A stretch of DNA of 64,000 nucleotides, taken from NCBI GenBank assembly GCA_041906765.1, contig JAYRIP010000001.1:13061-77060 (forward strand). The letters are read 5' to 3'. Positions 586 through 59,842 of the stretch are shown here, one piece after another. The notes beneath the pieces were generated by a model. That model worked only from the letters and a program-made list of their open reading frames with translations. It was not told the DNA's origin and did no database searches. Both the position numbers and the translations under genes were made by a program. This DNA comes from Candidatus Saccharimonadales bacterium. GTDB lineage: Bacteria; Patescibacteriota; Saccharimonadia; Saccharimonadales; JAYRRP01. How positions within the stretch are numbered: the first letter of the stretch is position 1; the number at the start of each line of letters is the position of its first letter.

Positions 586-977
586 GGGGCTGAAATTATA
601 TGCTCGACGCCAGTTCTTTATCGGTTAGATCAGCAGGTCGCTTGTCAGCGTTATAGGCAACTACAAGTAGATGCAAAAACATCACTTCGCGATCGCTTAG
701 CTGCTTTGAATCCGTTCAAACAGTTGGCATTCGCACCAGCCGTAGCCTAAGTTGCTTCGGCCATGCGTTGTGCGACACCAGATAGTGCAAATGCGTGCCA
801 TATTTTCTGGTTGCGTAAGTCCTCTGTCCATAGGATTTATTAAGAAATCAGGACTTTGAAAGCCGACTTTTTGACCGTTTACCGGCCGGTTTTCGAGACA
901 TTCTAAACGGTCTATGCCTGTAGACGACTAACTAGATAAACTAGCGGACGCGGGGGCAGTACCCGCCAGCTCCACCA
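586..977 (+). ncRNA. ssrA: tmRNA (SsrA)
   Basis: The 5' end GGGGCTGAAATTATATGCTCGACG and the 3' end GGACGCGGGGGCAGTACCCGCCAGCTCCACCA match the tmRNA tRNA-like domain. The acceptor strands GGGGCTG and CAGCTCC pair, and there is a T-arm and an encoded CCA. A candidate tag frame at 673-747 ends ...QLAFAPAVA, followed by TAA at 748-750. Confidence 0.9.
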
Positions 978-1156
978 AAGAAAGTACCTCCCTTGAAAAG
1001 TGGGGTTTTTTCTTTGGTAAAGTTTGTTAGGTGGGGACTGCCCCGAGAGGGTGAGGATTGCCAGTGGCAATCTGCAAGATTTCAGATACAAACTGGTTTG
1101 TAATATGTAAATTTCTGAACAAGTTGCGAAGCAACGTGTACCCGCCAGCTCCACCA
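959..1156 (+). repeat. 19-nt direct repeat of the tmRNA 3' end (GTACCCGCCAGCTCCACCA at 959-977 and 1138-1156) bracketing a 160-nt hairpin-rich spacer
   Basis: The two copies are identical by direct reading. Identity starts inside the T-loop and ends at CCA. The spacer holds hairpins at 1055-1071 (gattgcc agt ggcaatc), about 1085-1102 (tacaaa ctgg tttgta) and 1123-1135 (gttgc gaa gcaac). Confidence 0.85.
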
Positions 1157-2525: not shown

Positions 2526-4355
2526 ATGATTGTTGCTACCCAAGATCCAAATAAAATCCGAAATATTGCGATTATTGCCCATGTCGATCACGGTAAAACC
2601 ACTTTGGTTGATGGACTTTTAAAACAGTCTAAGATCTTCCGCGATAACCAGGCTGAGATGAGCCAGGAATTGATTATGGATAGTGGCGATCAAGAGCGCG
2701 AGCGAGGAATTACAATCACTGCCAAGGTTACTGCAGTGCAGTTCAAGGATAACCGGATAAACATTATCGACACCCCTGGCCACGCTGATTTTAGCGGCGA
2801 GGTCGAACGAACACTAAATATGGCGGATGGGTGTCTGCTAATTGTTGACGCCCAAGAGGGCCCAATGCCACAAACAAAGTTTGTTCTGAGTAAGGCTCTG
2901 GCTTATGGACTGAAGCCGATAGTTATTATCAACAAGATAGATAAGACTGGCTCCAGGATCAAAGAGGTGGAAGATGAAATTGCAGATCTTTTCTTGGAAC
3001 TAGCTGTGCATGAAGATCAATTGCATTACCCAGTTTATTATGCCGTTGGGCGTAGCGGTAAGGCTTGGAGTTCTATGCCTGCAAATACTGAGGCTAATGC
3101 AAATTTATCAATTGTTTTTGATGCAATTATTAAGTACACACCAGCGCCAAAAATTGAACCAGGCAAACCCTTTCAAATGTTGGTTACTGCTCTAGCCTGG
3201 GATAGCTTTAGGGGCAAATATGCTATCGGTCGTATTACTCGTGGAACGGTTTTGCCCCGTACGACAATAACTATATGCAAAAAAGACGGCACAAAGATTA
3301 AAGCTAAAGTTGATAGTATTTATATGAGCCACGGCTTAAACAAATTTGAAGTGTCAATAGGCGTAGCTGGTGATATTGTCCAACTAACAGGACTTGAGGA
3401 AGCCCAGATTGGTGAGACAATTGCTGATATTACTAACCCTGAAGCCTTGCCGGTAATAGAAGTTGAAGCGCCAACTCTTAAAATTTATCTGGGACCTAAT
3501 TCTTCACCCTTCAAAGGTACTGAGGGTAAATTTACGACCAGTCGCCAAATTGGCGAGCGCTTGCAAAAAGAACTGGAAACTAATGTGGGTCTCAAGGTTG
3601 TTGAGGACGGTATAGGCTTTTTAGTATCTGGTCGCGGTGAATTACATTTAAGTGTACTGATTGAAACACTGCGCCGAGAGGGTTTTGAATTTGAAGTTGG
3701 CCGCCCGCAAGCGGTTATTAAAGAAGAAAACGGTCAAAAATTGGAACCGATTGAAGAGTTAATTGTAGAAGTACCAGCTGAGCACGTTGGTACCGTTCAG
3801 ATGGAACTAGGTGCACGCCGGGCCATCCTGCAAGAACAATTCGCTGGTAATAAAAATTTAACTAAGTTGGTCTACAAACTGCCTACTCGTACCCAGCTAG
3901 GATTGCGCAATATTTTAATGACCAATACCAAAGGCACGGTAATTATGAACTCGCTGATGGTTGGTTACGAAGCGTTAGGCCCCGCACTTCAACAGTTACG
4001 AAATGGCGTCATAATATCTTATGAAACTGGCGTCACAACGCCTTATGCTCTGCAGGCCGTAGAAGACAGGGGCATTTCTTTTGTAGGTCCAGCTCAGAAA
4101 GTCTATGCTGGTCAAATAGTTGGGCTTAATAAACGACGAGATGATGTAGAAATGAATGTCTGCAAAGCAAAGCACCTAACCAATATGCGCAGTTCGAGTA
4201 GTGACGGTGTAGTCCAGTTGACTCCTCCAACTATCTTCAGCCTAGAAGAATGTCTCGATTTTATTGAGAACGATGAACTGCTAGAGGTTACGCCTAAGTC
4301 TTTACGACTGCGCAAGCAAGAGCTAGATCCTAACAAACGCAAACGCATCAACTGA
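2526..4355 (+). CDS. typA: Translational GTPase TypA/BipA
   Basis: 609 aa with AIIAHVDHGKTTLVD, DTPGHADF and NKIDK G-motifs. Length and C-terminal domains are EF-G-like, as in BipA. Confidence 0.9.
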   Translation: MIVATQDPNKIRNIAIIAHVDHGKTTLVDGLLKQSKIFRDNQAEMSQELIMDSGDQERERGITITAKVTAVQFKDNRINIIDTPGHADFSGEVERTLNMADGCLLIVDAQEGPMPQTKFVLSKALAYGLKPIVIINKIDKTGSRIKEVEDEIADLFLELAVHEDQLHYPVYYAVGRSGKAWSSMPANTEANANLSIVFDAIIKYTPAPKIEPGKPFQMLVTALAWDSFRGKYAIGRITRGTVLPRTTITICKKDGTKIKAKVDSIYMSHGLNKFEVSIGVAGDIVQLTGLEEAQIGETIADITNPEALPVIEVEAPTLKIYLGPNSSPFKGTEGKFTTSRQIGERLQKELETNVGLKVVEDGIGFLVSGRGELHLSVLIETLRREGFEFEVGRPQAVIKEENGQKLEPIEELIVEVPAEHVGTVQMELGARRAILQEQFAGNKNLTKLVYKLPTRTQLGLRNILMTNTKGTVIMNSLMVGYEALGPALQQLRNGVIISYETGVTTPYALQAVEDRGISFVGPAQKVYAGQIVGLNKRRDDVEMNVCKAKHLTNMRSSSSDGVVQLTPPTIFSLEECLDFIENDELLEVTPKSLRLRKQELDPNKRKRIN

Positions 4356-4432
4356 GACGAACATAATTGATTTTGGATGTTTATTTTGCTCATGCTTGCA
4401 TAGAGACATTGAAGTTTTACAATGTACTTATT

Positions 4433-4768
4433 ATGCCTGAAGGTGAGCCCCCGATTGTACCTGAAGAAGTGTCAGAGGTAGATTCTAGCTCTCTTGACTG
4501 GCAAGAATCTGCCAACTGTATCAATAAAGATCCGGATATCTTTTTTCCAGAAAGAGGTGCAAGCACGAAAGAAGCTAAGGCAATCTGTAAGGAATGTGAT
4601 GTACGGGAAGAATGTCTTGAGTATGCTTTTAAAAACGGCGAAAGGCGTGGGATTTGGGGTGGAACGAGTGAACGTGAGCGTCGTCAGATAAGAAAGCAAC
4701 GTGCCATACTACGTACTGCAGCCCGGCGGGCAATAAGGGAAAGTGAGCTTAGTCCCCTAGAGTCATAG
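4433..4768 (+). CDS. WhiB-like (Wbl) Fe-S transcription factor
   Basis: The four-Cys pattern C-x22-C-x2-C-x5-C (CINKD...CKECDVREEC), the GIWGG turn and an Arg-rich C-terminal tail are Wbl hallmarks. I place the start at ATG 4433 (MPEGEPP), because the upstream part of the ORF overlaps a promoter-like AT-rich region. Confidence 0.8.
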   Translation: MPEGEPPIVPEEVSEVDSSSLDWQESANCINKDPDIFFPERGASTKEAKAICKECDVREECLEYAFKNGERRGIWGGTSERERRQIRKQRAILRTAARRAIRESELSPLES

Positions 4769-5553: not shown

Positions 5554-5589
5554 TACGGTTTAGTATAACTCATCCAAGATCATTAATAT

Positions 5590-5991
5590 TCAACGTCGGA
5601 CATTGAGAGAGAGTCCCATAATGACGAATGCTACTATAAAGAAAACGACTTGCAGAGGATTAAAACCTATCAATAGTATCTGGTAGGTAAGCCAAGCGGT
5701 AAGCAGCACACCAATAGTAAATGCCACCAACCACGCATGACGTTCACCTATCCATATCTCGAAACTGGTAGCAAGCGGAATGAGACCAAGAATACCAAGC
5801 AGGAACAAACCAGGCCAAAAGTAACTGTGGACGGGCGCACTCTTTAAAAGTGTTGGTGATAGGTGTAAAACTCCAGCCGTATGCGTGTTGCTGACCATTG
5901 CCAAGCCCCCGGTAATTCCACATAGACCTAAGAAAATCAATACCCCCATAAGTAGAAATGTTTGTGTCCGGTATGATTGGAAATTTGGCAT
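5590..5991 (-). CDS. Hypothetical 4-TM membrane protein
   Basis: 133 aa, four hydrophobic segments, no recognised motif. Confidence 0.55.
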   Translation of the reverse strand: MPNFQSYRTQTFLLMGVLIFLGLCGITGGLAMVSNTHTAGVLHLSPTLLKSAPVHSYFWPGLFLLGILGLIPLATSFEIWIGERHAWLVAFTIGVLLTAWLTYQILLIGFNPLQVVFFIVAFVIMGLSLNVRR

Positions 5992-44720: not shown

Positions 44721-44807
44721 GCGCGAGTGGCGGAATTGGTAGACGCGCTACCTTGAGGTGGTAGTGGGAGCAATCCTGTGGAGGTTCAAGTCCTCTCTCG
44801 CGCACCA
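44721..44807 (+). tRNA. tRNA-Leu (anticodon GAG), CCA encoded
   Basis: Acceptor strands GCGCGAG/CTCGCGC pair. The anticodon loop is TTGAGGT. It has a long variable arm and the T-arm GGAGGTTCAAGTCCTCT. Confidence 0.9.
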
Positions 44808-51953: not shown

Positions 51954-52040
51954 GCCGCAGTGGTGAAATTGGTATACACGCTAGTTTCAGGGACTAGTGG
52001 GAGCAATCCCGTGGAGGTTCGAGTCCTCTCTGCGGCACCA
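51954..52040 (+). tRNA. tRNA-Leu (anticodon CAG), CCA encoded
   Basis: Acceptor strands GCCGCAG/CTGCGGC pair. The anticodon loop is TTCAGGG. It has a long variable arm and the T-arm GGAGGTTCGAGTCCTCT. Confidence 0.9.
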
Positions 52041-52224
52041 TATTGGGTTCAGTGCCTAGTTGGAGTGCGGGTTGGTAACTATAAGTGAGACTCGAACCGA
52101 TAGGCGTACATTGCTTGGGGCAATGTACGGAATCCTTGCTTGGCTGAGCGAGCATTTGCGCGCGGGCAACGCGCACAAATGTTGCCGAGCGAACATGAGG
52201 AGTCGAGTCCTCTCTGCGGCACCA
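52019..52224 (+). repeat. 22-nt direct repeat of the tRNA-Leu(CAG) 3' end (TCGAGTCCTCTCTGCGGCACCA at 52019-52040 and 52203-52224) bracketing a 162-nt structured spacer
   Basis: The copies are exact. The spacer holds hairpins gcgtacattgc/gcaatgtacg (52104-52129) and catttgcgcgc/cgcgcacaaatg (52153-52181). It also holds an inverted 10-nt copy of the T-arm (gactcgaacc, 52089-52098). Confidence 0.85.
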
Positions 52225-52301: not shown

Positions 52302-52378
52302 GGGTGGCTAGCTCAGTTGGCTAGAGCACCTCGTTTACACCGAGGGGGTCGGGGGTTCGAATCCCTCGCCACCCACCA
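52302..52378 (+). tRNA. tRNA-Val (anticodon TAC), CCA encoded
   Basis: Acceptor strands GGGTGGC/GCCACCC pair. The anticodon loop is TTTACAC and the T-arm is GGGGGTTCGAATCCCTC. Confidence 0.9.
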
Positions 52379-52564
52379 TACAGCTTTTGTTAAGAATTGT
52401 TTGTGGCGAAGGAAGCCAACTGCTTGGCTTTCGTGGGATGAAAACAGTCGGAGCCCTGTGTGAGTTTTGGCCTAAGGGCCAAAGGCGAACACGGTGAGAC
52501 GGGCTCGCGAGACTTTACCGTCAGGTAAAGTACTTGTGAGTCGAATCCCTCGCCACCCACCATA
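52357..52564 (+). repeat. 24-nt direct repeat of the tRNA-Val 3' end (TCGAATCCCTCGCCACCCACCATA at 52357-52380 and 52541-52564) bracketing a 162-nt structured spacer
   Basis: The copies are exact. The spacer has GTGAG (52460-52464) followed by a 7-bp hairpin tttggcc taag ggccaaa (52466-52483) and then gcgaac. A second hairpin ctttacc gtca ggtaaag lies at 52513-52530. Confidence 0.85.
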
Positions 52565-53074: not shown

Positions 53075-53149
53075 CAGGGTCCAAGTTGAATGTTTACCTC
53101 TTATCAGTTATGATAAATGTGCTTTTTGCCAGTTTAAATGGCGCTTTAG

Positions 53150-53225
53150 CTCAGTTGGTAGAGCAGAGGCCTGAAGAGCCTTGTGTCCCCAGTTCGAGTC
53201 TGGGAGGCGCCACCATAAAACTTTT
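53150..53225 (+). tRNA. tRNA-Phe (anticodon GAA), CCA encoded
   Basis: Acceptor strands GGCGCTT/AGGCGCC pair. The anticodon loop is CTGAAGA and the T-arm is CCCAGTTCGAGTCTGGG. Confidence 0.9.
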
Positions 53226-53393
53226 GTAACCTTTTTCCTGGTGAGAAAAGTTTCATTATGTCTCTACAGACGAAGAACTGGATCTTTTGCGTAGCAAAAG
53301 CAGTTTGACGCCAGCGAAGTCACGCACAGGAATATATTCCGAGCATGACGAAGTGCGCGAAGGCGTAGCCGAAGGTCTGGGAGGCGCCACCAT
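53208..53393 (+). repeat. 19-nt direct repeat of the tRNA-Phe 3' end (GTCTGGGAGGCGCCACCAT at 53208-53226 and 53375-53393) bracketing a 149-nt structured spacer
   Basis: The copies are exact. The spacer holds hairpins cttttgc gta gcaaaag (53294-53310), the palindrome ggaatatattcc, and tgcgc gaag gcgta near the 3' end. Confidence 0.85.
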
Positions 53394-53450: not shown

Positions 53451-54872
53451 ATGCATGAGAACAACAGACCTAGAATCACAGGCGTAGAAACAGAGTTCGG
53501 TTTCGTATATGAGCTGCAACAAGGCAACGGCTGCTATGATTTCGCCTATAGCCCCCACGCCGACACTATATTATCCGATAACTTACCCGCGGGTATTCAC
53601 CGTACCAACAAGCGTGGGATGCTTAGTAACGGTGCCCGGGTATATATAGATATTGGCGCCCACCCAGAATTTTCTACGGCCGAAGCCGCCACTTTCAAGG
53701 ACGTCATAGCGCAAGACCTGGCAGGCGAACGCATTATTTTTCAATCTTTTCAACGGATGGCAGAAAGAGGCATGCTGAAAAGCTTTCAGCTAAACAAAAG
53801 GGTGGCGGACATGTGTGGCACTTACTGGGGCAGGCATGAGAACTATCTAGTACCACGCACGCTGGACACAAATACCGAAATCGTGCCTCAGGTTGCCTTA
53901 CATTTGGCTACTAGGTCAATATGGGCTGGAGCCGGAATGCTTCGTCCCGACAGCGAATACGTGATGGCACAAAAGATAAATGCTATTCGCACCCTGTGCA
54001 GCTATTCCGCTAGCAGGGAAGGCTTGCGCCCGTTGGTGGATATAGGTCGTGATGAGCCGCATGCCGATAAATCATTGTGGCGCCGTCTTCATGTGGCTTC
54101 GGCAGACTCTAATATGTTCCCGTGGACTTCTTGGATGTCTCTCGGCACAACATCAATCGTCTTAAGAATGGTGGAACAGGGGGATGACTTAAGTGACCTA
54201 CACTTGTACAATCCGGTTCAAGCAGCACATAAGACAATACGTGATCTTGACCTGAATGCCAGCTTGTCGCTAAAAAATTCCACAAAACCAATGACAGCTT
54301 TAGACATACAGGAAGCTTTAGCGGAACGGGCGTGTGTAATGTCACAAAACGGTTGTCTTCCACCTGAAGAGCAGCAGATAGCTGCTGAATGGATGAAATT
54401 GTGCCAGGATTTAAGGCGGGATTCCGAACAATGCGCTGAACGAGTAGAGTGGATTGCAAAATATATGTTTCTTGGCAAAGTCGCCGCCAAAAAGAATATA
54501 GCCTTTCATAGCGAGCCCCTAAGGAAGTTAGATATAGCTTGGGACAACCTAGATACAGACAAAGGCATAGCTCAAAAAATCCGCGCCAAACGAAGTTTGC
54601 CCGAGATAGTAAGCGAAGAAGAAGTGCAGGCAGCCATGATAGAGCCTCCGCACACGAGGGCCCATACAAGAGGACGGCTTATAAAAAACTTTGCTAGCCT
54701 ACAGAATCTAGAATCCCCTCCGATTAGTGAACATATTATTGATTGGCATGAATTTGCGATTAAACACTCTAAGGGTGGCAATACTGGAATCTATCAAGTT
54801 GTTCTTAATGATCCTTACGAAACCGAATCTGCCGAAGCAGATGAGATGCTGTATCTGATGTCTAAATTTTAA
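53451..54872 (+). CDS. Pup-ligase/deamidase family protein (PafA/Dop-like)
   Basis: RITGVETEFG, NGARVYIDIGAHPEFSTAE and GRHENYLV match the conserved PafA/Dop N-terminal and active-site motifs. 473 aa. Confidence 0.75.
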   Translation: MHENNRPRITGVETEFGFVYELQQGNGCYDFAYSPHADTILSDNLPAGIHRTNKRGMLSNGARVYIDIGAHPEFSTAEAATFKDVIAQDLAGERIIFQSFQRMAERGMLKSFQLNKRVADMCGTYWGRHENYLVPRTLDTNTEIVPQVALHLATRSIWAGAGMLRPDSEYVMAQKINAIRTLCSYSASREGLRPLVDIGRDEPHADKSLWRRLHVASADSNMFPWTSWMSLGTTSIVLRMVEQGDDLSDLHLYNPVQAAHKTIRDLDLNASLSLKNSTKPMTALDIQEALAERACVMSQNGCLPPEEQQIAAEWMKLCQDLRRDSEQCAERVEWIAKYMFLGKVAAKKNIAFHSEPLRKLDIAWDNLDTDKGIAQKIRAKRSLPEIVSEEEVQAAMIEPPHTRAHTRGRLIKNFASLQNLESPPISEHIIDWHEFAIKHSKGGNTGIYQVVLNDPYETESAEADEMLYLMSKF

Positions 54873-55076
54873 CTGGTTGCACAGATAACGTTCACTCATT
54901 ATAATCTTACCCTGTTAATAGCTATTAGGATTAGGGTAGAAATTTTAATTGTTTAAAGTTTTTATCCCCCGATTAAAGAGAGGATTCTTTAATCGGAAGA
55001 GGAGCAGGCAACAAACGTATCTGCAAAACCAAAAGTTCCGCCTTGGTTTCGCAAGCAAGTTGTTAAACTGCGACGT

Positions 55077-55153
55077 GCGGGTGTAGCTCAGTTGTTTAGA
55101 GCGCTTCCTTGCCAAGGAAGAGGCCAGGGGTTAGAGTCCCCTCACCCGCACCA
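55077..55153 (+). tRNA. tRNA-Gly (anticodon GCC), CCA encoded
   Basis: Acceptor strands GCGGGTG/CACCCGC pair. The anticodon loop is TTGCCAA. The T-loop TTAGAGT is unusual. Confidence 0.9.
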
Positions 55154-55341
55154 AGTAAAGAGTCGGTCGAAAGACCGGCTTTTTACTTGGTCTGAGGCGG
55201 CTCTTACGCCTGGTCGAGAAGAGGCCAGGGTGAGAAGTGCCAGTGGCACTTCGCAAGGGAACCTTCCGATGAAAACTTGTTTTCAATGGTGAAGTTCCGG
55301 GCCCGCGGAAGGCGGGGAGAGTCCCCTCACCCGCACCAAGT
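55133..55341 (+). repeat. 24-nt direct repeat of the tRNA-Gly 3' end (AGAGTCCCCTCACCCGCACCAAGT at 55133-55156 and 55318-55341) bracketing a 164-nt structured spacer
   Basis: The copies are exact. The spacer starts with a terminator-like hairpin (55154-55190). It also contains a 13-nt copy of the tRNA variable/T-stem segment gaagaggccaggg (55218-55230), then GGGTGAG and hairpin aagtgcc agt ggcactt (55235-55251), followed by tgaaaa cttg ttttca and cccgc ggaag gcggg. Confidence 0.85.
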
Positions 55342-55713
55342 TGACACCAATGACTGTTCCCTATCAAGGGAGCTTTTATTTTTCTTGATTGAGCTGTCGG
55401 TTTCAACCTTAGCCAGTTCTGACTTCATTTTTGGTAAGTTGTCCTTGATTGGGATGACCCATGGATTAGGCTCTATGCTTACCGTTTTATTTGTAAGGAC
55501 TGGGTTACAGCCTATGGCTAACAGAATCTCTCTCCTCATACCGAAGTTACCCGCTTTAAAATTCTCACTAGCATTACATAGTCGTTCAAGAGTCATGCCG
55601 ATGATCTCGTACCAGTTTTTGACCCTTTCTGCGGTATCTTTCTGCTCTTTTTGGCGCAGGGCAAGCTCGGTCTCTATGACAATGCGAAGTGGCAAGAATT
55701 GAGCAATAGGCAC
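55327..55713 (-). pseudogene. Possible C-terminal remnant of a large serine recombinase
   Basis: 128-aa GTG-start ORF with a stop two codons upstream. GNFGMRREILLAIGCNPVLTNKTVSIEPNPW resembles, from memory, the tail motif (..K.EIL.ALGSN..L.DKKL.) of large serine recombinases. No catalytic N-domain is present. Confidence 0.35.
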
Positions 55714-55797
55714 TATGACTTACGCAAAATCTGGCACGCAGTCCTCTACCTAACGGGAAAGATGGCCATGGCGCAGAAAAAGGCTTCCAAACGATAA
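55684..55797 (+). mobile_element. Degraded N-terminal fragment of an IS5-type (DUF4096-like) transposase
   Basis: The frame reads ...KWQELSNRHYDLRKIWHAVLYLTGK.... D-L-R-x-I-x-x-A-V-L-Y-L-x-TG matches the conserved DLR..lnAIlYvlrTG motif. The frame breaks right after it and there is no start codon. Confidence 0.4.
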
Positions 55798-55845
55798 CTG
55801 CTCGTGAATGATTAATCACTAGATATCTAATTTGTAGTATACCTA

Positions 55846-55874
55846 TTGACAATGTAGTACTTGTCTGCTAACAT
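55846..55874 (+). promoter_or_regulatory. Sigma-70-like promoter TTGACA-N17-TAACAT for the GHKL operon, predicting a leaderless or near-leaderless first gene
   Basis: Consensus -35 at 55846-55851 and -10 at 55869-55874. The ATG at 55885 lies only about 4 nt beyond the expected transcription start. Confidence 0.5.
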
Positions 55875-55884
55875 ACGTACTACC

Positions 55885-56103
55885 ATGACAAATGAGAGTA
55901 AAAACGAAAAATTCAAGCGGTTAGCCAAGCAGCGCGGCGATCGTGTATTGAAGGACATCGAGTTACTCGGTAATCTGGGCAACCGGAATAATTATGATTA
56001 TTCCGAATCAGATGTCAGAAAGCTGTTTTCGACTCTAGAGGAGGAGTTACGAATAGCTAAGACGAGGTTTAAGCAAAATAAAAAGCGCGAAATAAGATTC
56101 TAG
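55885..56103 (+). CDS. Small basic helical protein (72 aa), first gene of the GHKL operon
   Basis: MTNESKNEKFKRLAKQRGDRVLKDIELLGNLGNRNNYDYSESDVRKLF.... The TTG at 55861 proposed by the ORF track lies inside the promoter. Confidence 0.5.
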   Translation: MTNESKNEKFKRLAKQRGDRVLKDIELLGNLGNRNNYDYSESDVRKLFSTLEEELRIAKTRFKQNKKREIRF

Positions 56104-56138
56104 GGTATGGTAATTACATAATTTAGGGGGACCAATAA

Positions 56139-58151
56139 ATGGCCACATTCACACAACCCATCAACCGAGCGGCAGACCTTAAAGCAATATTGGATGGTTA
56201 CGAACAAGCAATTAAAAAAGATAGTTGGTTGTCCGAAGCTTTTCAAAAGGATGGAATACAGAACGCATGGGGAGCACGTACCTCTTCGAGGGGCAATGGT
56301 TGGGAGGTTAAACTCCTCTATTACAGCGACCCCTCGACTTCTAGGACCTTCGCAATAATTGAAGACGCAGGAACCTACGGTTTAACAGGTAACGTGCCAG
56401 AGAACGTAGAGGAAGAAATACGCTTGCTTGAATCTGAAGATGAAAGGCAGCGTTTGGGACGGTTTCTGAGTTCGAACTGGAGCTTAAAAACGGAAAACTC
56501 TTTGGGCTCGCGAGGCCGCGGTAAGATGATTTTTGTTGGAGCTTCAACAACCAATGAAATGTATTTTGAAACAGTCAAGAGCGATGACAACTATTACGTA
56601 TTCGGCAGAACTTATTTGGATAAGGATAAGACCATGAAGGTCGAAGTTCAAAAAGGCAGGCAGGCACACGAAATGCGTGAGCGAGTATTTGGTCATAGAT
56701 TTCCTGCCGTACGCCATGTAGGTACGAGAATCATCGTACCGGAACCAGAACAAGAGCTAGCTGATGCGCTTAGAACGGGTAGCATTGCAGAAAGCATCCA
56801 GTTGACATGGTGGGAGATTATAAATAAGTACCAGGCAAAGATTTATGTCGGGGAGCTCAGTAACGCGAAGCTAGTAGAGGCTTCGCCCTGGCTTCCAACT
56901 GAGGTGTCTGGCATAAATAAACAAAAAAGCTATACGAATATAGCAATAGAGCCAGGCTCTATTTTAAAAATCAAGAGGATCGGCCTCGCATACCTTCAAG
57001 ACAAAGAGGTTCCGATTAATTACCAGGGTATAGCGATACAGCGTGGGGGCATGAACATCCAAGTGATGCCGACAACTAAGTTGTTGCGCGAAGTACCAGA
57101 GGGCAAAATTTTTGGCTCAGTTGAGTTCGACAGATCGCTCGACGATGCGATGTTAGAGCTTGAGCATGCCGAGCACTATGACTTTAAGTGGCACAAGGGT
57201 GTCGCTTATAAAGTTAACCGAGAGCTTAAAAAAATCGTAAATGATTTTGCCCGGGAATTTAAAATCCTAAATGATGAACGAGAGGCCTCCTCAAAAGACA
57301 GAAAAGAGGCTGCATCCGCTGTTCAACGAGAGTTGAATGATATTGCCAAATCATTGGGGCTAAAAGGTTTAGGATTTGGGACAAAGACCAAGGGATTGCC
57401 GCGTCCGGCTCCTGTTGAGCCAGAACAGATTACAATTTCGATACCTGAGTTTAAGACGCCTAATACCAATGGACAGGTAAGTGCGGGACAGTACCTTACG
57501 GGAACCTACGCACTTGCCAGTAGCGAGTATGCAGAGCAATTAAAGGTCAGCTCCCAAATTTGGATCTATAGAGAAGGGGGCTTTAACCTTCCTGGCTTAG
57601 TCGAATCGCGAGAAGGAGTTGTAGGTAGCGGAATTGCAGCATTAAGAGTAGGTTGGGACGACTTACACATAGACGATCGCTTTGAAAAGGGTCACTACTT
57701 TCTTAAGGCAAAATTGATTGCGCTTGAGGACCGAACGATGGATGACGGTAAGGAAATCGAAAAAGGTGACATTCTATACCGAGAAGTTTCAAGACCATTT
57801 TGGGTTGATGAAGAGCCGCCAGCAAAGGGTTTCTTTAAAGACATCGTAGCTCTCTCCAAAGGCCGAGAAAACTATGTCTGGTGGGAATACGAAGACGGCT
57901 ATGTGCTTTGCTATAACAAAGAACACCCACGCATTAAAGAGATAATCGATGATGACGAAGCATATAAGGATTTGCTTCGCAAGGAAGGTACTCTTATCCT
58001 TTGGGCCATCGTTTTAAACAATGTCATTGCTAACCCCGAAGAGATGGACAAGAAGATACTGAAATTAACGGATGGTGTAGAAGAGCAATCTTTGGAAAGC
58101 CAGGTGGGCTGGCTGCTCAGCCGTCGCAGTGAAGTGCTATGGGGTAAATGA
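56139..58151 (+). CDS. GHKL-superfamily (MORC/MutL/Hsp90-like) ATPase-domain protein, 670 aa
   Basis: N-box-like EAFQKDGIQNAWGA, G1-like IIEDAGTYGLTG and G2-like GSRGRGKMIF. A strong RBS AGGGGGA precedes the ATG. The C-terminal approx 400 aa have no recognisable domain. Confidence 0.65.
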   Translation: MATFTQPINRAADLKAILDGYEQAIKKDSWLSEAFQKDGIQNAWGARTSSRGNGWEVKLLYYSDPSTSRTFAIIEDAGTYGLTGNVPENVEEEIRLLESEDERQRLGRFLSSNWSLKTENSLGSRGRGKMIFVGASTTNEMYFETVKSDDNYYVFGRTYLDKDKTMKVEVQKGRQAHEMRERVFGHRFPAVRHVGTRIIVPEPEQELADALRTGSIAESIQLTWWEIINKYQAKIYVGELSNAKLVEASPWLPTEVSGINKQKSYTNIAIEPGSILKIKRIGLAYLQDKEVPINYQGIAIQRGGMNIQVMPTTKLLREVPEGKIFGSVEFDRSLDDAMLELEHAEHYDFKWHKGVAYKVNRELKKIVNDFAREFKILNDEREASSKDRKEAASAVQRELNDIAKSLGLKGLGFGTKTKGLPRPAPVEPEQITISIPEFKTPNTNGQVSAGQYLTGTYALASSEYAEQLKVSSQIWIYREGGFNLPGLVESREGVVGSGIAALRVGWDDLHIDDRFEKGHYFLKAKLIALEDRTMDDGKEIEKGDILYREVSRPFWVDEEPPAKGFFKDIVALSKGRENYVWWEYEDGYVLCYNKEHPRIKEIIDDDEAYKDLLRKEGTLILWAIVLNNVIANPEEMDKKILKLTDGVEEQSLESQVGWLLSRRSEVLWGK

Positions 58152-58795
58152 TGGCTATAGTCTTACGCCGAGGCGGTGAAAAACAGTATAAAAGCGGTAC
58201 CGGCAGGGTAACCAGTGAGGATAGTCTAAAAGCAGACCAACTGGATAATGAGCTTAGTATAAAAATCAAGGCATATGAACAGGATGCTCTGAAAAGAGGT
58301 CTTATACTCCCCAATGGCACAAAAAAAGACGCATTACGGATTTGGTATGATATCGGAAAGTTGCTGTATGACATAGCCGATAAATATGGTGTATTGGGCA
58401 CATCCGATGAGCTTTACTATTGGCAGTCAATTTACGACCACGTTTCGCCTTTAATTCAAAAACTCGGGCCTCCTCAAAGTACATCGAACACTAGGAATCA
58501 CTTTAGATTGTGCGCTTACATGGCTAGTAAGGGCGATTGGGACTTTGTTAGCAGTGTGGGTAACTGGTCCGTATGGCGAGACTTATTAGATAATAGTAGA
58601 ATCCAAGAAGATCCACGGGTATTTGATTGGGTAGTTAATGCAATACATACGTCAGGCCTTGGGCATAAGGAAGTCAGACCGTTCGTACACGAAGTCCGGC
58701 GAAGTATAAAAAACAAAGACACTACGGTATTAACCGACAAAGAGTTGGTAGCTAAGCTGCAACCATTACTGGGTTTGATTCCTTCGAAATCTTAA
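58148..58795 (+). CDS. Hypothetical 215-aa protein, translationally coupled (ATGA) to the GHKL ATPase
   Basis: There is a 4-nt start/stop overlap with the upstream gene. I could not identify any nuclease motif. Confidence 0.6.
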   Translation: MMAIVLRRGGEKQYKSGTGRVTSEDSLKADQLDNELSIKIKAYEQDALKRGLILPNGTKKDALRIWYDIGKLLYDIADKYGVLGTSDELYYWQSIYDHVSPLIQKLGPPQSTSNTRNHFRLCAYMASKGDWDFVSSVGNWSVWRDLLDNSRIQEDPRVFDWVVNAIHTSGLGHKEVRPFVHEVRRSIKNKDTTVLTDKELVAKLQPLLGLIPSKS

Positions 58796-59798
58796 CCAAA
58801 TGGGTATTCATTTCAAGGGCCAGAAGCGTTTCTTTTACGCTTTCTGCCACAGCTTGAGCAACAGGCACAGATACGGCGTTGCCTAATTGCTTATAGGCTT
58901 GTGTAACAGGGATATCAAATGAGTAGTCATCGGGGAATCCTTGAAGTCGTGCGCTTTCTCTGGTTGTAATCTTCCTAACCCCTCGAGAATTTAATGGTGA
59001 GCCGGTTCGGTTTACGGCATCCCTTGGCTTAGGAACATCTTGGATTAGATTTCGCTCCCTTCCCATATTGCCAACTACAAGCGCGGTAGATATGCCCTCT
59101 GGATCTAGAATGCGATATCCGAAGCCATGGCCTTTGGCAGCATGCCTTTGCTTGTGTTTTTCGAGTCCGTCCATGTATGTTTGCGAAAGATAGTAGTAAT
59201 CGTGCACCTCTTCCTTTTCAAGAATGTCCTTAACGCGAAGTTTAAGTTCAACAGGCTCTGGAAACTTAAATTCTGCAGAATGGTCCTTGAAGCCCACTAT
59301 GTAAATTCGCTTCCTATCTTGAGGAAGCCCATAATCCTTTGTGTTTAGAACTTGGGTATATACCTTATACTCTAGCTCGTTTTCAAGCTTATCCATGATG
59401 ATCTTAAACGTATTGCCCCCATCATGTTTAACGAGGTTTTTTACATTCTCAAGTACAAATGCTTTTGGACGCTTAGCCTTTAGTATTTCGAGCACATTAA
59501 AAAAGAGCGTTCCCCTTGCGTCATAGAAACCGTGTAGCTTACCGATTTTAGAAAATGGCTGGCAGGGGAAGCCCCCCGTAATTATGTCGGCGTAGGGTAT
59601 GTCGTTTGGCTCGACTTTAGTAATGTCTTGTAAATCTAATGCGCCTTCGCCAAAATAGCCGTCGAAGGAGACCTTGCACCACTTATCAAAATCATTTGAA
59701 TATATAGTTCTAAAACCAGCCCTCTCAAATCCGAGCCTAAAACCGCCGATTCCAGCAAACAGATCTACTAAGGTATATTTGTTATCGGATGTTGTCAT
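58752..59798 (-). CDS. dcm: DNA (cytosine-5)-methyltransferase
   Basis: Motif I DLFAGIGGF, motif IV GGFPCQPFS, motif VI ENVKNL, and motif X QLGNAVSVPV. Confidence 0.9.
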   Translation of the reverse strand: MTTSDNKYTLVDLFAGIGGFRLGFERAGFRTIYSNDFDKWCKVSFDGYFGEGALDLQDITKVEPNDIPYADIITGGFPCQPFSKIGKLHGFYDARGTLFFNVLEILKAKRPKAFVLENVKNLVKHDGGNTFKIIMDKLENELEYKVYTQVLNTKDYGLPQDRKRIYIVGFKDHSAEFKFPEPVELKLRVKDILEKEEVHDYYYLSQTYMDGLEKHKQRHAAKGHGFGYRILDPEGISTALVVGNMGRERNLIQDVPKPRDAVNRTGSPLNSRGVRKITTRESARLQGFPDDYSFDIPVTQAYKQLGNAVSVPVAQAVAESVKETLLALEMNTHLVKISKESNPVMVAA

Positions 59799-59842
59799 AA
59801 TGTTTAATTATAGCCGGAAACGTAATAATTGGCATCAAGGTT

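Follow-up and report, generated by a model that had tools for sequence, protein, structure and literature searches.

Folded, protein-less modules of about 180 bases in the tRNA and tmRNA genes of Saccharibacteria

Near the start of the 64,000-nucleotide stretch of Candidatus Saccharimonadales DNA analysed here (the window; positions count from its first base) lies a tmRNA gene, ssrA, whose 3' end is present twice. The intact gene occupies 586–977 on the plus strand and scores 67.2 bits against RF00023 in an Rfam scan (gathering score 47, model positions 1–374); it is not called by ARAGORN. The T-stem and the CCA end, which is encoded in the gene, are present (T-arm GCGGG-GGCAGTA-CCCGC), and the T-loop is GGCAGTA instead of TTCRANT, which is probably the reason why ARAGORN misses the gene. 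The last 19 nucleotides (nt), GTACCCGCCAGCTCCACCA, occur exactly twice, at 959–977 and 1138–1156, and 100 shuffles produced no match to them. The first copy, Y(1), takes in the last three nt of the T-loop, the 3' strands of the T-stem and the acceptor stem, and CCA; the second, Y(2), is an exact orphan copy on the same strand. The positions of the two copies define an insert of 160 nt at 978–1137. An earlier note on this DNA had pointed out the duplication and described the spacer as devoid of a credible open reading frame (ORF), and our analysis agrees on both counts. The ORFs overlapping the insert are 28–81 amino acids (aa) long and lie on both strands, the longest running antisense to the tmRNA, and related ssrA inserts differ by insertions and deletions that are not multiples of three. 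Therefore the insert contains no credible gene.

What the insert does contain is a series of folded pieces, all on the plus strand. It opens with a terminator-like hairpin, T1 (974–1018, inverted repeat I1), in whose stem ACCA pairs with TGGT and which ends in a T-run; in other modules, too, the tRNA is followed by a hairpin built in this way. An antisense copy of the tmRNA T-arm comes next (GGTGGGGACTGCCCC, 1030–1044, inverted repeat I3), 87% complementary to 953–967. The sequence X' (1041–1051) is a degenerate sense copy of the 5' strand of the T-stem (CCCCGAGAGGG); it is kept in four ssrA modules and, together with the last part of the antisense piece, folds into a small hairpin. The rest of the insert, 1052–1137, is a core of three hairpins delimited by consensus structure and covariation, to which our covariance model R1 (described below) aligns at 1046–1146 with 53.6 bits (E = 2.6e-11). 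These hairpins are P1 (1052–1076, UGAG...GCA with loop AGU), P2 (about 1079–1116 by the consensus structure) and P3 (1123–1135, GTTGC-GAA-GCAAC). The earlier note had noticed the terminator-like hairpin and three further ones; the tRNA-derived sense and antisense pieces had escaped it. It follows from the order T1, antisense piece, X', core and Y(2) that, in an incomplete second copy of the tRNA-like domain, the core takes the place of the T-loop. Downstream of Y(2), inspection of the sequence reveals a weak hairpin (TTCGA/TCGAA) with a T-run at 1166–1187 on the plus strand, probably the original ssrA terminator region; the terminator scan made no call at this hairpin. In independent assemblies of the same species (L001, L002 and L003, compared with window 946–1138) contigs end at the module edges: one begins 7 nt ahead of the second repeat, and two others begin within the T-arm of the tmRNA. 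This pattern suggests that the assembly graph branches there because of repeats or of variants in the population.

Four tRNA genes about 51 kb away, all on the plus strand, are followed by inserts of 159–164 nt and repeats of 18–22 nt. Behind tRNA-Leu(CAG) (51954–52040; with its module 51954–52224) a 162-nt insert at 52041–52202 precedes a 22-nt repeat at 52203–52224; the insert holds an antisense piece at about 52084–52115 and a divergent core, weakly matched by R1 (52099–52185, 15 bits, E 0.04). The insert behind tRNA-Val(TAC) (52302–52378; whole 52302–52562) is likewise 162 nt long (52379–52540) and is followed by a 22-nt repeat (52541–52562); its antisense piece lies at about 52397–52420 and its variant core has an extended 3' hairpin, as found in variants of the family. 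For tRNA-Phe (53140–53215; whole 53140–53392) the insert measures 159 nt (53216–53374) and the repeat 18 nt (53375–53392), with an antisense piece at about 53260–53281 and a short divergent core. The module of tRNA-Gly(GCC) (55077–55153; whole 55077–55338) has a 164-nt insert with T1 at 55154–55190, an antisense piece at about 55193–55215 and a canonical core at about 55231–55317, then a 21-nt repeat at 55318–55338. R1 matches this last core at 55225–55326 with 97.9 bits, and the terminator scan calls both T1 and T2 of the Gly module terminator-like. Scanning the window left the Val and Phe cores under the R1 threshold, and clear R1 homology is confined to the tmRNA and Gly cores. These two inserts share GGGTGAG-N4-GCCAGTGGC-N5-GCAAG, with compensatory differences in the stems. 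The kinship of the five modules proposed in the earlier note thus stands for their common size and layout and for the Gly core, which is homologous, and needs refinement for Leu, Val and Phe, whose cores are of divergent types. The same note had judged the ssrA insert too small for an island and had placed it with the tRNA-linked modules, and the homologous covarying core of the tmRNA and Gly inserts supports this placement. In total, five of the six tRNA-like genes in the window have a module; tRNA-Leu(GAG) (44721–44807) has none.

The core belongs to a large family. A version of its motif with 20 specified bases, scanned against species-representative genomes, matches at least 117 genome loci, nearly all titled Candidatus Saccharibacteria or Saccharimonadales, in line with the homologues of the window's helicase, and no match was found in 2.9 million viral contigs. 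In an alignment of 68 cores three hairpins stand side by side, and 25 of the 35 base pairs show compensatory changes. The model R1, built from the consensus of these 68, finds 126 cores in 100 loci (701 kb). In this larger set paired cells make up 96.2%, compared to 70.7% in shuffles, 33 of the 35 pairs show compensatory changes in which both sides have changed, and the covariation score is 0.614 as against at most 0.089 with the partners slid. G·U pairs are much more frequent than A·C (214 and 31), therefore the fold belongs to the strand shown, either as RNA or as single-stranded DNA. Rfam 15 gives no match to the inserts at the gathering threshold; with E values up to 10 there are only weak matches at chance level (miRNA models, permuted tmRNA, DUF3800-XI) and none to an intron or ribozyme family. 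The covariation support of the core is about equal to that of accepted RNA families, yet it has no counterpart in Rfam 15, and no description of the core family was found in Rfam or in the literature searched. The ssrA insert is one copy of an undescribed family of protein-less folded modules of about 180 bases residing in the tRNA and tmRNA genes of Saccharibacteria. In L047 a core has a lysM-TM7 RNA (RF03005, 88 bits, 5587–5735) as a neighbour at a distance of some hundred bases. Earlier searches for RNA motifs thus did include TM7 genomes, and the core family is still not in Rfam.

The modules keep a strict geometry relative to their host genes. Note that the loci were fetched because each held a core, and all fractions of tRNAs with a module are upper estimates. 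Among cores within 260 nt of a tRNA, 84 out of 88 point the same way as the tRNA and four are opposite to it. Two layouts can be distinguished. Class A (46 cores) is the layout seen in the window: the tRNA ends 60–85 nt upstream of the core, and its 3' end, from T-loop to CCA, is repeated after the core. In class B (38 cores) the tRNA starts 28–96 nt downstream of the core; a copy of its 5' part, 18–55 nt long and beginning 1–6 nt ahead of the mature 5' end, stands before the core, and a short 3' flank and the antisense piece follow it. A survey of 124 tRNAs from the fetched loci and the window gave 34 of class A, 32 of class B and 62 of neither, so that about half of the tRNA genes in the examined loci carry a module; the repeat spacings of class A are mostly 139–188 nt. 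An intact tRNA or tmRNA gene always stands beside the interrupted partial copy. The length of the repeat, 12–55 nt, is set by the distance from the insertion point to the gene end, and the segment duplicated in class A ends at the mature 3' end (CCA plus 0–5 nt). Insertion points lie mostly in the T-loop, but the D-loop, the variable loop and the anticodon loop of tRNA-Pro(GGG) are used as well. Insertion always follows a G (left flanks GGG, AGG, GAG, TAG and GCG), and the core begins with TGAG. On the exact side the repeat is perfect over the tested stretch in 21 of 39 class A and 21 of 33 class B modules and decayed in the rest; the other side of the core is degenerate, at about 73–75%.

Between the two sense copies there is an antisense piece in every one of the 30 class A modules compared, and it fits its own tRNA better than other tRNAs (score 28.4 versus 17.8). 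In minimum-energy folds of the second unit it is predicted to pair with the repeat and X', which would give a multi-helix junction with a single-stranded NCCA tail. Some loci are more complex. Among the cores opposite to the neighbouring tRNA, that of L016 sits inside an antisense tRNA-Phe fragment, and L031 has the same arrangement; L020, L040, L091, L105 and L107 contain nested cores, L023 and L057 two cores in one pseudo-tRNA, and L019, L069, L084 and L122 tandem modules. Two cores of one assembly are 90% identical while their flanks differ. A separate case is L055 (3370–3620), where no core is present but parts of a tRNA-Ile are repeated on both sides of it: its 5' half as a 35-nt copy 53 nt upstream, its 3' part as a 30-nt copy 48 nt downstream. 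The arrangement looks as if a complete tRNA had gone into another copy at the anticodon loop.

Such a geometry could have arisen by way of RNA. The core RNA might be linked to pieces of tRNA where loops are exposed; the resulting chimera, or else a pre-tRNA ending in a hairpin, would be reverse-transcribed with snap-back priming, and the complementary DNA would then recombine beside the cognate gene. The duplicated segment does reach the mature 3' end or starts shortly before the mature 5' end, as given above, the insertion points are loops of the folded tRNA, the structure is strand-specific, and the order sense–antisense–sense with hairpin turn-arounds is what snap-back synthesis would produce. 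We nevertheless consider such an origin improbable. No reverse transcriptase was found near the modules or among the window ORFs scanned; the antisense piece comes without an antisense core, so it was not copied from an interrupted RNA; and the four cores opposite to the neighbouring tRNA do not fit. A three-hairpin RNA of about 100 nt with few conserved unpaired bases is also unlikely to be a self-inserting ribozyme, and no ribozyme or intron family matches it. Since 122 of the 124 tRNA genes encode CCA, looking for added CCA is uninformative here.

Related genomes show the same sites with and without a module. In one relative, whose Pup-ligase homologue is 57% identical to the one encoded in the window, the order tRNA-Leu, tRNA-Val, tRNA-Phe, ligase and tRNA-Gly is kept. 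Its tRNA-Leu and tRNA-Phe (L124) and tRNA-Gly (L123) have no module and its tRNA-Val (L124) is occupied. In L124 the CCA of tRNA-Phe is followed directly by the terminator that stands after the second repeat in the window; it follows from the shared terminator that the 177 nt of insert plus repeat are a clean indel. At 3033–3222 of L124 lies an orthologous Val module with the same unusual core, and its repeat matches the acceptor stem of that species, which differs from the one in the window. We dropped the idea that the antisense piece of the tRNA-Val module also tracks the acceptor stem, as the aligned species share an orthologous piece with one change. It is the direct repeat alone that clearly mirrors the host stem.

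The ssrA site behaves in a similar way. A metagenome scan for the tmRNA 3' end with the GGCAGTA T-loop listed 106 matches with enough downstream sequence, of which four have a downstream repeat, at spacings of 161–198 nt. The comparison of related ssrA loci for alleles without the module, which the earlier note had suggested, yielded a precise empty site: L004 is occupied, and L247, which shares its repeat sequence and its flank (TTCGACnCGCTT, in L247 immediately behind CCA), is empty. The four ssrA modules of the window, L004, L029 and L183 can be aligned over their whole length; compensatory changes distinguish their P1 and P2 stems, and the differences in the tmRNA T-stem (GC, AC, GG and AC) are exactly mirrored in the second repeat. 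The neighbouring helicase gene did not serve as a synteny marker: its homologues at 79% identity have no ssrA directly upstream, and L004 holds the ssrA end and the module further upstream. In at least 120 metagenome contigs a tmRNA 3' end with the GGCAGTA T-loop was seen. Seven contigs (L180, L187, L208, L216, L179, L185 and L231) carry the start of another tmRNA, GGGGCTGAA..., about 15–60 nt past the tmRNA CCA, which could reflect tandem ssrA genes or small circular contigs.

These alleles bear on the possibility that the insert is a scar, that is, the joined attL and attR of a large island or prophage in ssrA whose interior has been lost. The 3' ends of ssrA and tRNA genes are classic integration sites, integration leaves a direct repeat of the 3' part of the gene (PMC9897764), and one relative has a gene for a large serine recombinase right next to tRNA-Gly. 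In spite of this we regard the scar as effectively excluded. The insert size is nearly constant in the window (159–164 nt) and clusters around 160 nt elsewhere, the same covarying core is present at more than 100 loci in many different tRNAs, and related ssrA loci carry this small module or are cleanly empty, and never have a larger element. No integrase remnants were found in or near the ssrA insert. The earlier note had named as the outcome that would speak against it the two arms of a deleted prophage with no likeness to the tRNA-linked spacers; the spread of the core, its clean empty sites and the lack of an integrase nearby show a different situation.

How do the modules come to sit where they do? 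The observations behind mobility are the family itself, its fold and strand specificity, its geometry, the nested and tandem copies and the precise presence and absence, together with the lack of any protein in cis. The layouts are those of mobile-element integration into tRNA genes, hence we class the module with integrative elements. We give even chances to its being a non-autonomous miniature integrative element of about 180 bp that is mobilised in trans. [quoted passage not shown] From the arrangement of the parts we infer a circular, single-stranded intermediate, its crossover point, the kind of recombinase and present activity. A small circular intermediate would recombine with the loop of a chromosomal tRNA arm. 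It is probably single-stranded and folded, with the antisense piece pairing with both sense flanks to form a target-like duplex, and a recombinase encoded elsewhere would act on it in trans. A folded single strand is favoured because the fold is strand-specific and an antisense copy spans the insertion point. If the circle has the order 5' flank, core, 3' flank and rest, a single crossover 3' of the core would produce class A and a crossover 5' of the core class B. The module would bring along a replacement piece of the gene, either the 3' end with the terminator-like hairpin or the 5' part, and in this way an intact tRNA or tmRNA would remain.

In comparison with known elements, the module resembles islands, prophages and integrative and conjugative elements that use tyrosine integrases at tRNA and tmRNA genes. 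In both, the repeat is the part of the gene from the T-, anticodon or D-loop to the gene end, a full copy and a partial one are left, the host gene stays functional, upstream and downstream layouts exist, and presence and absence are precise. Loop-to-gene-end repeats beside an intact gene were found here, as were occupied and empty alleles bounded by repeats at ssrA and tRNA-Phe; neither integrase nor cargo lies inside the 160-nt insert, which has no credible ORF. The known elements, in contrast, measure kilobases and carry an integrase and cargo, whereas the module has about 180 bp and neither of them. Its interior is a covarying fold of single-strand type and not a series of protein-binding duplex arms, it includes an antisense copy of the target arm, and its junctions vary by a few bases.

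Folded single-stranded recombination sites are known from integrons (attC) and from CTX phage, whose attP(+) hairpin is used by XerCD. These are strand-specific imperfect hairpins with segments that pair into a target-like duplex, and the recombinase is absent from the element or supplied in trans. The module may be similar in that its antisense piece spans the insertion point and is predicted to pair with both core flanks, though at only about 80% complementarity and with a weak wobble bias, and in the large excess of G·U over A·C in the core. It is different in that its targets are tRNA arms of many sequences and not one dif or attI site, and in the 100-nt three-hairpin branch at the presumed crossover; the likeness is drawn here from sequence and predicted folds. 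Bacterial miniature repeats such as MITEs (miniature transposable elements with inverted repeats), REP/REPIN, Rickettsia palindromic elements and palindromic elements derived from IS200/IS605 share other traits with the module: they are short, multicopy, non-coding, hairpin-rich, lineage-restricted, non-autonomous and sometimes nested. Unlike them, the module lacks both terminal inverted repeats and a short target duplication of constant length, occurs almost only in tRNA and tmRNA contexts, and has a fixed orientation and target-derived sense and antisense flanks.

Several specific candidates were rejected. The inverted repeats are internal hairpins, none of which joins both ends, and the direct repeat of 12–55 nt depends on the insertion point, which does not agree with a MITE. 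A palindromic element derived from IS200/IS605 would explain hairpins at both core ends, but the left flanks share only the final G and each copy comes with a long repeat. There is no adjacent ORF for an IS110-type bridge RNA element, and the core consists of three simple hairpins, none with a large internal loop. As a guide RNA of a TnpB/IscB-type nuclease the module would be directed at the essential gene beside it, and its guides would lie at either end of the scaffold. For a retron, no reverse transcriptase was found near the modules or among the window ORFs scanned, and there is no a1/a2-msd layout; for a small self-cleaving ribozyme, there is no family match and there are few conserved unpaired bases. 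Group I introns interrupt tRNAs of Patescibacteria (PMC13011429), and they are not these modules; the text of that paper mentions no T-loop, duplication or repeat. The likeness to such interrupted tRNA genes, and to intron-containing and split tRNAs of archaea, is that a structured sequence sits in a tRNA loop, in the case of group I introns in the same phylum. However, a spliced tRNA intron does not fit: the interrupted copies are fragments that cannot be spliced into a tRNA, an intact gene adjoins them, and no intron family matches.

A number of results weigh against the miniature integrative element. The antisense piece is only about 80% complementary, with a weak wobble enrichment of 41 G·U to 24 A·C pairs, and the repeat meets the core anywhere from position 55 to position 59 of the T-loop, a looser boundary than a fixed crossover would give. 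Presence and absence cannot by themselves separate gain from deletion between direct repeats. Identity between cores is higher for one host tRNA across genomes (0.63) than within a genome (0.58; otherwise 0.54), therefore most copies would be old residents. Modules occupying one site in several genomes differ by compensatory changes, which fits selection on the individual resident copy, through a function for the host or in cis, as well as or better than pure selfishness. In addition, a protein partner is missing from the places searched: no recombinase, transposase or reverse transcriptase was found beside any module, Pfam scans of about 50 window ORFs revealed none of these, and phage contigs as a source of the partner gave nothing, the core motif having no match there. 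When 1093 ORFs around the 117 loci were clustered and the ten largest clusters were judged by eye from their sequences, only housekeeping-like families appeared among these ten.

It may be that the module works for the host, as a cis-acting structured RNA domain of the tRNA or tmRNA transcript with a role in processing, stability or regulation. It would be a 5' leader when upstream and part of a read-through transcript when downstream, its 3' tail would be tRNA-like, and the partial tRNA copies would reflect how the RNA is built and closed and not mobility. We find this rather unlikely, though it is a serious rival and deserves more weight than the other alternatives. The strong covariation, the strand-specific fold and the co-orientation of 84 of 88 cores with the tRNA are what such an RNA should show. 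In several class B modules good promoter-like hexamers can be recognised by eye upstream of the partial copy, by which the core would be transcribed, and predicted folds close the core with the antisense-repeat helix and leave a single-stranded NCCA tail. Same-site modules (tRNA-Val in two species and ssrA in four contigs) keep their hairpins by compensation, and the repeat mirrors its own stem. On the other hand, half of the tRNAs in module-rich loci and 102 of 106 tmRNA loci with the same T-loop, among the matches listed, have no module, and one tRNA can be occupied in one genome and free in a close relative. Across genomes a given tRNA also differs in its insertion site and core subtype, copies are nested or in tandem, and flanks have decayed in about 40% of the modules. 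In the downstream type a terminator-like hairpin even separates the gene from the module. If the modules are nevertheless host RNAs, they would represent a trait of tRNA and tmRNA expression found throughout the lineage, in a phylum whose genomes are very reduced.

If instead the modules are mobile integrative elements, then about 180 bases without a protein are enough for integration at tRNA and tmRNA genes, for which elements usually span kilobases and bring an integrase of their own. The module contains an antisense copy of its target, and this points to a mechanism that is single-stranded or guide-like. An unlikely but attractive version is a self-addressed device, in which sense and antisense copies of the arm around the three-hairpin scaffold, as RNA or DNA, would program a trans-acting recombinase to the cognate gene. 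Because the address would be copied from the target, the scaffold could have acquired new addresses, in tmRNA and in the tRNAs for at least 15 amino acids. This would be a natural retargetable guide-like recombination system, unlike bridge RNAs and unlike integron or Xer sites. In any case the partial tRNA copies made by the modules can be mistaken for genes by annotation tools and can break assemblies.

Some observations concern the neighbourhood of the tRNA cluster. Between tRNA-Phe and tRNA-Gly, at 53451–54872, this Saccharimonadales genome encodes a protein of the Pup-ligase family (PF03136, E 1e-92). Five homologues have at least 50% identity and the others at most 38%, and those few that have a source name are of Actinomycetes type. 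As a broad synteny anchor the ligase is too rare in the lineage, and one relative gave the key syntenic comparison. For an ORF of 146 aa between tRNA-Val and tRNA-Phe an exact-protein look-up returned no match. The ligase gene and tRNA-Gly are separated by a non-coding leader of about 170 nt that is conserved in the related species (window 54905–55076; L123 2960–3147); it contains the hairpin CCCCCGATTAAAGA...TCTTTAATCGG and is preceded by a TATAAT box. On the 3' side of the tRNA-Gly module, within 55340–59800, there are ORFs of 670 and 215 aa without a Pfam match and a C5 cytosine DNA methylase at 58752–59798. In the relative, the large serine recombinase gene that abuts the 3' end of tRNA-Gly is located at 3213–4709 of L123; for this reason tRNA-Gly seems to be a site for larger elements too. 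At the other end of the window, 4367–4768 of this Saccharimonadales genome encodes a WhiB-family transcription factor (PF02467).

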